In this document: in pieces, positions 53,281-54,462 of the stretch
How the letters are laid out: the number at the start of each line of letters is the position of its first letter
How positions within the stretch are numbered: position 1 is the first letter of the stretch
NCBI GenBank assembly: GCA_964540555.1
Contig: CAZINF010000003.1
Location: 1-55,617, forward strand
Origin: an uncultured Syntrophus sp.
GTDB taxonomy: Bacteria; Desulfobacterota; Syntrophia; Syntrophales; UBA5619
DNA: 55,617 nt
Direction: 5' to 3'
Made by a program: the position numbers and the translations under genes
The notes under the pieces: model-generated
What the model was told of the DNA's origin: nothing
Databases searched by the model: none
The model's input: only the letters and a program-made list of their open reading frames with translations

Positions 53281-54462
53281 TTGGAATGCCCGCGCAGGTC
53301 TACCTGGACTACCAATCGTCGAAGCCTGTCTGATCCCCGAGTAGTCGACGCGATGCGCCCCTGGTTTACCGAGCGCTTCGGCAACCCCAGTTCGCTGCAC
53401 CTCGACGGCGACGAGGCCACTGACGCCCTCGAGAGGTCCCGTGATAGGGTTGCGCAGTTCATCGGCGCGACCAAGGACGAGATCATCTTCACATCGGGTG
53501 CGACCGAGTCGAACAACCTTGCCATTATCGGATACGTCACACGCAACCGCAGGCGAGGCGACCATGTCGTCATCGCGGAAAGCGAGCACATCTCGGTCCA
53601 CAACATCGCCAAGGCAATAGAAAAACAGGGCTTCAAGGTCAGTAAGGTGGGGGTTGACCAGTATGGCCGGGTAAGCGTCGAGAAACTCCGAAAGAAGATC
53701 ATCGACACGACAATCCTCGTGAGCATCGGCTGGGCGAGCAGCGAGATCGGCACCGTCCAGCCCATGCAGGAGATCGCCGATGTGCTGCACGGCAAGGGCA
53801 TCGCGCTGCACAGCGACGCGGTTGCGGCCGAGGGGCTCGTGCTTATCGACGTGAGCAAAGTCGCTGTCGACCTGCTGACTCTCTCCGCCAACGACCTCTA
53901 TGGCCCCAAGGGCCTGGGCGCACTCTACATCAGGAAGAACGTGAACATCGCGCCGATTATGCCGGGCGGCGGCCAGGAGAAAGGTTTGCGATCCGGTAGC
54001 GAAGCCATGCCCGCCATCGTGGGCATGGCGGCCGCAGCGGACATCATGGCCTCCGAGATGCCGGCGGAGGCGCCCAGGCTCGCGCAGTACCGCGACCGGC
54101 TCATCGAGGGGGTGCTCGGCCGGATTCCCAAGTCGTATCTCAACGGACACCCCCGGGAGAGGCTCCCCAGCAATGCGCACTTTCGGTTCGATGCCATCGA
54201 GGGCGAGTCGTTGCTGCTGTCCCTGAAGGACAAGGGCATCGCCGCCTCGACAGGCTCCGCCTGCTCGTCGAAGACCCTCGAGCCCTCGCACACGCTCATC
54301 TCCTGCGGGCTGCTCCACGAGGAGGCGCACGGCTCGCTGGAGTTCACCTTCGGCAGGTGGAGCAGGCCCACCGACGTGGACCGCGTGCTTGAGGTCCTGC
54401 CAGGCATCGTCGAGAGGTTGCGCAGTCTATCACCACTCTACGAGAAAGAGGTAAAGGCATGA
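53281..54462 (+). CDS. iscS: NifS/IscS-type class V aminotransferase-fold protein lacking the PLP-binding lysine; 5' end frameshifted
   Basis: It has [13 protein letters not shown], HSDA and the persulfide-loop GSACSS. The SxHK motif reads SAND (53884-53895). The SD-preceded ATG at 53286 gives MPAQVYLDYQSSKPV then TGA (53331). The long ORF continues in the +1 frame with DPRVVDAM. Confidence 0.8.
   Translation: [393 protein letters not shown]

Follow-up and report, generated by a model that had tools for sequence, protein, structure and literature searches.

An aspartate-type IscS encoded with TusA, DsrE and IscU

An iscS-like gene, termed iscS* in the following, was analyzed on a DNA stretch of 55,617 nucleotides from an uncultured Syntrophus sp. 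(NCBI GenBank assembly GCA_964540555.1, contig CAZINF010000003.1, positions 1 to 55,617 of the forward strand; this whole stretch is called the window). The encoded protein IscS* carries an aspartate at the position of the Schiff-base lysine of cysteine desulfurases and is a member of the type already established for IscS2 of Archaeoglobus fulgidus. The lysine-less form constitutes a coherent clade in both domains, Archaea and Bacteria, shares four fixed exchanges in the active site and is almost always encoded together with TusA and DsrE. Since the exchange of lysine by aspartate was known from A. fulgidus, the window gene itself adds one more member, which is bacterial and a broken copy. It is the linkage to the carrier genes that makes the open question of the sulfur supply to IscS-IscU of the A. 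fulgidus type experimentally approachable.

Substitution at the Schiff-base lysine position

The motif S-A-N-D is found in place of S-G-H-K when the sequence is read in the frame of the long open reading frame 53281-54462 on the forward strand. The relevant positions are as follows.

53884-53886, forward strand: TCC, Ser of S-A-N-D
53887-53889, forward strand: GCC, Ala of S-A-N-D
53890-53892, forward strand: AAC, Asn of S-A-N-D, position of His205 of Escherichia coli IscS
53893-53895, forward strand: GAC, Asp of S-A-N-D
53824-53826, forward strand: Ala at the position of Gln183 of E. coli IscS (MAFFT column)
54340-54342, forward strand: Glu at the position of Arg354 of E. coli IscS (MAFFT column)
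54253-54270, forward strand: G-S-A-C-S-S mobile loop with the persulfide/cluster-ligand Cys at 54262-54264

The product was assigned to the class-V aminotransferase/type-I desulfurase fold (Pfam PF00266 Aminotran_5, 9e-67; full-length alignment to 4EB5). A phmmer search against all PDB sequences revealed A. fulgidus IscS2, named 'probable cysteine desulfurase 2' in the PDB, as the top match (4EB5/4EB7/4HVK, E 2.4e-135, 454.7 bits), while the second-ranked family of structures reached 313.6 bits. The window residues N-D were aligned on N-D (Asp199) of A. fulgidus IscS2, which lies in the segment t-i-s-s-N-D-i-y-g-p-k-g, and on N-K of the engineered D199K variant 4R5F.

The first-pass annotation, which had been made from the sequence with an alignment by eye, had claimed the exchanges Lys to Asp and His to Asn, the retention of GATESNN, SEH, HSDA and the cysteine of the GSACSS loop, and a parallel to the A. 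fulgidus protein. Both exchanges were confirmed by direct reading of the DNA and by the phmmer and MAFFT alignments, and all of the named motifs are present in the window gene. In the MAFFT alignment with E. coli IscS (sequence from NC_000913) the window protein has no lysine in the column of the residue that binds pyridoxal 5'-phosphate (PLP); its aspartate 53893-53895 shares this column with Lys206. The parallel to A. fulgidus holds as well, as its IscS2 is the closest solved structure.

Two features of a canonical desulfurase are thus replaced in the window protein, namely the Schiff-base lysine by Asp and the carboxylate-binding arginine by Glu. It reaches the equivalog cut-offs of NCBIfam neither for NifS (451.4 versus 530.75) nor for IscS (373.5 versus 643.2 and 379.5 versus 548).

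Conservation of the active site

Aspartate at the lysine position was found in 120/120 nearest database homologues (68-94% identity), all of which also possess the loop cysteine. Consequently, the substitution is neither noise nor chance. The nearest named homologues belong to metagenome-assembled genomes (MAGs) labeled Smithella sp. and Deltaproteobacteria bacterium RBG_16_58_17. The names "cysteine desulfurase" or "NifS" in the public records of some Asp-type proteins are probably wrong.

These 120 sequences were pooled with 150 sequences that each represent a cluster at 50% identity and with 80 named-genome loci that were kept from a genome scan and comprise genera other than Archaeoglobus. 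In the resulting alignment, 140 sequences are of the Asp type and 189 of the Lys type. In E. coli IscS numbering the two types differ at four positions.

Lys206: Asp in 140/140 (Asp type); Lys in 189/189 (Lys type)
His205: Asn in 139/140 (Asp type); His in 172/189 (Lys type)
Gln183: Ala in 138/140 (Asp type); Gln in 183/189 (Lys type)
Arg354: Glu in 126/140 (Asp type); Arg in 188/189 (Lys type)

Other residues were kept among the 140 Asp-type sequences: His104, Asp180 and Ser203 in all 140, Thr76 in 139 and the loop cysteine Cys328 in 138. In the known IscS structures, His104 (E. coli numbering) stacks on the cofactor ring, Gln183 bonds to O3' of the cofactor, Arg354 binds the substrate carboxylate, and the remaining pocket residues provide the N1 and phosphate contacts. 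The pattern is that of a pocket which can still hold a pyridoxal-type ring and its phosphate, but in which neither the covalent link nor the arginine for the substrate is left. In this respect the first-pass annotation, which had called the A. fulgidus protein PLP-free, was mistaken: the protein binds pyridoxamine 5'-phosphate (PMP) or PLP (PMC8918507), and the pocket residues are invariant in the Asp-type clade. From the lost Arg354 equivalent together with the A. fulgidus biochemistry we infer that IscS* is inactive as a desulfurase.

Phylogeny and distribution

For the comparison of loci the intact second copy of IscS*, encoded on contig C51 of the same genome bin (G000), was used as reference. 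At least 50% identity to this protein was observed for 13 loci from named genomes, and S-[S/A]-N-D is present in 13/13. They derive from Actinomycetota (5), Bathyarchaeia (4), Thorarchaeota (1), Promethearchaeota (1), Nitrospinota (1) and an unclassified bacterium (1). Below 50% identity, lysine was found in 58 loci of many phyla, glutamine in Dehalococcoidia, Acidobacteriota and Aminicenantes, asparagine in one member of the Thermoplasmata and threonine in one of the Halanaerobiales.

A maximum-likelihood tree of 61 rows was calculated with a quick method, with the Shimodaira-Hasegawa-like approximate likelihood ratio test (SH-aLRT) as sole support measure and with the A. fulgidus sequence left out. 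The 22 Asp rows and one Asn row form a single clade (SH-aLRT 99), outside of which the Lys-type clades are placed. Within it the Bathyarchaeia branch first, followed by Nitrospinota, Asgard archaea and Actinomycetota, and the family of the window is nested inside. The phylogenetic placement that the first-pass annotation had called for accordingly puts the window gene within the Asp clade. Its suggestion that the variant class is broader than thought is also supported by the identity split and the tree, which reveal one clade across several archaeal and bacterial phyla; two previously described cases were found in the literature, A. fulgidus IscS2 and Methanosarcina acetivorans IscS1. Provided that the tree is rooted within the Lys-type clades, the ladder of branches suggests a transfer of the Asp type from archaea to bacteria.

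The glutamine forms constitute a separate clade (support 100). Its five loci (L027, L032, L034, L036 and L061) display A-G-N-Q or A-G-D-Q, and tusA is located downstream of iscU in 2/5 of them.

The distribution of the Asp type is patchy. Within the family of the window it was detected in 8/25 genomes, one of them being G000, and within the genus in 3/15; it was not found in the other families of the order (16 families, represented by a single genome each). In an even sample of 200 genomes from the phylum, two encode it (~1%), and there is one borderline case in addition.

Linkage of lysine-less forms to tusA and dsrE

The window gene is part of a group of five genes with one direction and tight spacing, several of which overlap.

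52216-52590, forward strand: desulfoferrodoxin (superoxide reductase), first gene of the unit shared with C51 (Pfam Desulfoferrodox, Desulfoferrod_N)
52613-52864, forward strand: tusA, sulfur carrier (Pfam TusA 5e-26)
52861-53271, forward strand: dsrE-like gene, one cysteine in C-E-A-S-K-Q-M-L-G-W (Pfam DsrE, DrsE_2)
53281-54462, forward strand: iscS*
54459-55268, forward strand: iscU, scaffold protein fused to a C-terminal segment (Pfam NifU_N 9e-45), overlapping the iscS* stop by 4 nt

When the window neighbors were used as tblastn queries, tusA was found directly upstream of iscS* in 13/13 Asp loci of the named genomes. A dsrE gene is present in 8/13, in 7/8 of these between tusA and iscS*, and iscU lies downstream in 11/13, the other two loci being cut by contig ends. 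All seven Asp loci from family relatives (7/7) have the order tusA-dsrE-iscS*-iscU, the latter with the C-terminal segment. Both tusA and dsrE were absent from six Lys-type loci of the same order with 48-50% identity. The carriers are conserved as well: the cysteine and both prolines of Cys-Pro-x-Pro are invariant in 18 TusA homologues adjoining Asp-type iscS genes, and the DsrE cysteine is conserved among homologues linked to Asp-type IscS.

The linkage was then counted by means of a hidden Markov model built from these TusA sequences, with tusA scored when located within 2.5 kb.

Asp type: 20/20 loci
Asn type: 1/1 locus (L041)
Thr type: 1/1 locus (L079)
Gln type: 2/5 loci
Lys type: 0/66 loci

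Fisher's exact test for tusA adjacency gave p = 3e-19, a value that overstates the evidence because the rows are related. Seven further representatives of lysine-less clusters were inspected. The contig of P0139 is too short to judge, and P0154 was read from gene calls only. The serine form P0134 shows tusA-dsrE-iscS*-iscU, the alanine form P0127 dsrE-iscS*-iscU at a contig start, the glycine form P0151 iscS*-dsrE-tusA and the threonine form P0154 iscS*-tusA; the remaining two are considered below. Thus, independent lysine losses are often accompanied by tusA or dsrE as well.

A different arrangement was observed for the S-G-S-D form P0138 (locus L110; GCA_964588345.1, CAZPOY010000057.1, 3897-6635). 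It comprises an S-G-S-D IscS homologue, iscU and a second Aminotran_5 gene and is devoid of tusA and dsrE. Here, a live desulfurase may be encoded beside a dead one.

The first-pass annotation had connected the TusA/DsrE context with a different sulfur source. The link proved real and specific (20/20 versus 0/66) and makes a source other than cysteine plausible, a deduction from the gene neighborhood. Literature searches on TusA, DsrE, IscU/IscS and archaea retrieved no paper describing a linkage with lysine-less IscS.

Frameshift in the window copy

The open reading frame of the window iscS* is interrupted by a stop after codon 15.

53286-53333, forward strand: true 5' end of the iscS-like gene, with ATG, 15 codons (MPAQVYLDYQSSKPV) and TGA at 53331-53333
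53331, forward strand: single inserted T shifting the frame at codon 16 (DNA alignment with the C51 copy)
53332-54462, forward strand: main body of iscS* in the shifted frame; the mechanical open reading frame begins at TTG 53281, and the nearest in-frame ATG past the break is 53353

The ATG at 53286 is preceded by the Shine-Dalgarno-like sequence GAGAGAGG. All close relatives start with the same peptide MPAQVYLDYQSSKPV and continue with DPRVVDAM... in one frame. None of the relatives compared, including those at 89-94% identity, contains the insertion.

An assembly or binning artefact was considered as cause of the extra T and rejected. For four runs, independently assembled Logan contigs span 53217-53397 with zero mismatches or gaps at a word depth of 10-27, and no indel variant was reported. 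Thus, the insertion is present in the reads; the four runs belong to one rock-metagenome study, are probably the source samples and are not independent of the MAG. Between window and C51, 5 synonymous but 0 non-synonymous differences were counted in the first 15 codons, and dN/dS (the ratio of non-synonymous to synonymous divergence) amounts to 0.19 for the rest of the gene. Consequently, the break must be very recent. The window iscS* is either newly inactivated or yields only an N-terminally altered product. Because of the frameshift, this copy lends itself poorly to the biochemistry which the first-pass annotation had proposed.

A functionless recent pseudogene, either a decaying duplicate or the allele of a co-binned strain, is a serious candidate for the window gene, although we would place it just short of an even chance. 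The early stop seen in the contigs of four runs, the intact twin on C51 and the restriction of the insertion to this copy argue for it. On the other side, the synonymous-only changes in the first 15 codons and the low dN/dS leave room for a very recent inactivation only, and a product could still arise if translation re-initiates at ATG 53353 or at the TTG. This explanation of the single gene is compatible with that given for the family as a whole. A programmed +1 frameshift at G-U-C U-G-A, judged by the generally known features of the prfB site, was rejected as highly improbable: the break falls on an in-frame UGA and both frames are under purifying selection, but relatives at 89-94% identity lack the site and read straight through, re-pairing of the Val tRNA on UCU would be poor, and no Shine-Dalgarno-like stimulator was seen just upstream.

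Second copy on contig C51 and the genome bin

The C51 iscS* is intact. It encodes 391 residues with 98% protein identity to the window copy and carries Asp at the lysine position. The match extends over window 52202-55259 and C51:5848-8913 and represents a 3.07-kb unit of the desulfoferrodoxin gene (dfx), tusA, dsrE, iscS* and iscU with 93.9% nucleotide identity. Homology is confined to this unit, begins at 52202 ahead of the desulfoferrodoxin gene, and the upstream flanks differ. The synonymous divergence dS between both copies is 0.05 for iscS* and 0.09 for the IscU domain, as compared to 0.21-0.40 for dfx, tusA, dsrE and the C-terminal segment of IscU. The low values in the middle of the unit hint at gene conversion or at a recent exchange of this region.

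Completeness of the bin amounts to 85.8% and contamination to 6.6%. Matches between pairs of its contigs, many of them located at the ends, add up to ~75 kb with 88-99.8% identity (e.g., C21/C76, 11.5 kb at 98.9%). Such near-identical pairs indicate co-binned strains, and copy numbers in this MAG therefore need care.

Other desulfurases of the bin possess the lysine: a NifS adjoining a NifU-type scaffold (C258), an IscS-like gene (C223) and an enzyme on C6. A fourth NifU_N protein is encoded on C133, and the SufB/D core was not found in the bin at its 86% completeness. In the presence of ordinary lysine-bearing desulfurases, IscS*-IscU has to be regarded as an accessory system here.

Proposed function and alternative explanations

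In the model which we favor on balance, IscS* would be a non-catalytic IscU partner of the A. fulgidus type supplied by a TusA/DsrE relay. The exchanges Lys206 to Asp, His205 to Asn, Gln183 to Ala and Arg354 to Glu have removed the residues required for PLP-dependent cysteine desulfuration. By analogy with the A. fulgidus (IscS-IscU)2 complex, IscS* would pair non-catalytically with the IscU encoded downstream. It would lend its loop cysteine as carrier or as ligand for the nascent [2Fe-2S] cluster and would make no persulfide from cysteine. The upstream-encoded TusA and DsrE-like carriers would hand in the sulfur via persulfide transfer from cysteine to cysteine. Sulfide/polysulfide, thiosulfate or the lysine-bearing desulfurases of the genome are possible ultimate sources. 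How cluster assembly proceeds without desulfurase activity is a question raised in a 2022 review (PMC8918507). The exchanges, the clade membership, the operon structure and the association with the neighboring genes are established by the sequence data, whereas the lack of activity, the scaffold role and the relay are deduced from them and from the A. fulgidus protein.

Several observations weigh against this model. The neighborhood counts correspond to roughly 3-8 independent lineages of lysine loss and not to 27. Among the glutamine-type loci, 3/5 have no tusA within 2.5 kb. The S-G-S-D form P0138, with its second Aminotran_5 gene behind iscS*-iscU, has neither tusA nor dsrE, and the glutamine form P0176 shows none of the neighbors listed for the other forms, tusA and dsrE included. 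On C6 (C6:11584-12902, L002) tusA adjoins a lysine-bearing, group-II-like class-V desulfurase with T-G-H-K and an H-C-A-P cysteine. This third tusA of the bin and its neighbor look like a conventional desulfurase-TusA pair; therefore, the linkage claim holds within the IscS/NifS-like sample and not for all class-V enzymes. Furthermore, the window copy is broken, and the intact C51 copy may stem from a co-binned strain. Finally, the sulfur would have to flow in reverse of the direction from IscS to TusA in E. coli.

The main rival to the relay is a direct use of sulfide. The role of IscS* would then be limited to that of a structural partner of IscU and a ligand of its cluster, free sulfide would enter, and TusA and DsrE would serve another purpose, e.g., the thiolation of different targets or sulfide detoxification. 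Direct sulfide use is the published hypothesis for A. fulgidus (PMC8918507), and Methanococcus maripaludis uses sulfide for its Fe-S clusters (PMC7585200). In addition, some lysine-less loci lack the carriers. We nevertheless regard this alternative as rather unlikely. The occurrence of tusA in all 20 Asp loci over two domains and in none of the 66 Lys loci is hard to explain without a cooperation of carriers, IscS* and IscU, and the tight packing of the operon with its overlapping genes also speaks for such a cooperation.

Residual catalysis with a non-covalently bound cofactor, either slow cysteine desulfuration or another PMP/PLP-dependent reaction, appears very improbable: the residues holding ring and phosphate are invariant and PMP/PLP was found in the A. 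fulgidus crystals (PMC8918507), but desulfurase activity is missing in the A. fulgidus protein (PMC8918507; PMC7585200), the substrate arginine is Glu in 126/140 sequences, and both cofactor-positioning residues, Gln and His, have been exchanged as well.

Beyond the aspartate clade, the TusA/DsrE relay may be recruited as a rule whenever the lysine is lost in homologues of type-I desulfurases. We put this forward as a tentative generalization. The cassette would then represent a self-contained, cysteine-independent Fe-S system in which the loop cysteine does no more than pass sulfur from the carriers on to IscU, and it would have been exchanged horizontally between the two domains. If true, this would answer the question left by the 2022 review as to where IscS-IscU of the A. 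fulgidus type obtains its sulfur.

Further features of the operon and the window

The real start of the dsrE-like gene is probably ATG 52900 or 52909, and its product matches the DsrE2 model of NCBIfam weakly. A desulfoferrodoxin gene is also located upstream in four loci of the family besides C51 (among them L094, L095 and L097).

The C-terminal ~135 residues of the IscU protein (window 54864-55268) weakly resemble the NAD(P)H domain of thioredoxin reductases. The match to TRX_reduct (3.9e-10 over residues 152-266) is far under the NCBIfam cut-off, and that to Pyr_redox_3 (1.8e-4) is weak. The segment also occurs in the Actinomycetota, Thorarchaeota and Promethearchaeota loci and in the family relatives; it was not detected by tblastn in the Bathyarchaeia loci.

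Elsewhere in the window, a 1.19-kb repeat with 95% identity (892-2085 and 8625-9818) lies within the long open reading frames 880-2790 and 8610-10526, both on the reverse strand.

Comparison with known systems

E. coli IscS (1P3W) is homologous to the window protein over the full length (E 1e-81) and shares the loop cysteine and the partnership with IscU. In contrast, its Schiff-base lysine, His205, Gln183 and Arg354 are all replaced in the window protein. TusA is a physical partner of E. coli IscS (complex 3LVJ), and sulfur flows from IscS to TusA in this organism. The relays of sulfur oxidizers (DsrEFH/TusA; archaeal DsrE3-TusA) employ the same two carrier families as the window operon with conserved active cysteines. 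The TusA-DsrE relays known so far serve tRNA thiolation or a sulfur oxidation of the Dsr or Hdr-like kind and not an Fe-S scaffold.

The MIS system (MisS/MisU) of anaerobes is a two-gene unit of a desulfurase-like and an IscU-like protein that lacks ISC-type chaperones and carriers, and MisS has been described as a cysteine desulfurase (PMC13066941). The passages on MisS/MisU in this 2026 review contain no mention of a lysine-less subgroup or of a link to TusA/DsrE (PMC13066941). IscS1 of M. acetivorans is reported to have no PLP-binding lysine and to adjoin iscU, and four further genes of unknown function belong to the same cluster (PMC7585200). As far as the published description goes, the missing lysine and the neighboring iscU resemble the window locus.

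The closest counterpart is A. fulgidus IscS2 (AF0564; 4EB5, 4EB7, 4HVK; D199K variant 4R5F), which could be aligned over the whole length. Both proteins share the fold, N-D in place of H-K, the exchange of Gln183 by Ala, the cysteine of G-S-A-C-S-S and the pairing with IscU. They differ at the position of Arg354, which is Leu in A. fulgidus and Glu in the window. Moreover, the window gene belongs to a bacterial host and a bacterial sub-branch, is frameshifted, and is accompanied by an IscU with an extra C-terminal domain. The A. fulgidus protein is devoid of desulfurase activity and supplies a cysteine ligand (PMC8918507; PMC7585200); in its complex with IscU, the loop cysteine of IscS serves as the fourth ligand of the cluster (PMC8918507; PMC13066941). 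PMP was bound in the wild type as well as in D199K, while PLP was modeled in the IscS-IscU complex (PMC8918507). The reversion of D to K that the first-pass annotation had proposed thus exists for the A. fulgidus protein (4R5F), and the variant still held PMP with the bound cofactor unchanged (PMC8918507). A single reversion of this kind is unlikely to restore activity in IscS* because the linked exchanges Gln183 to Ala, His205 to Asn and Arg354 to Glu would persist.

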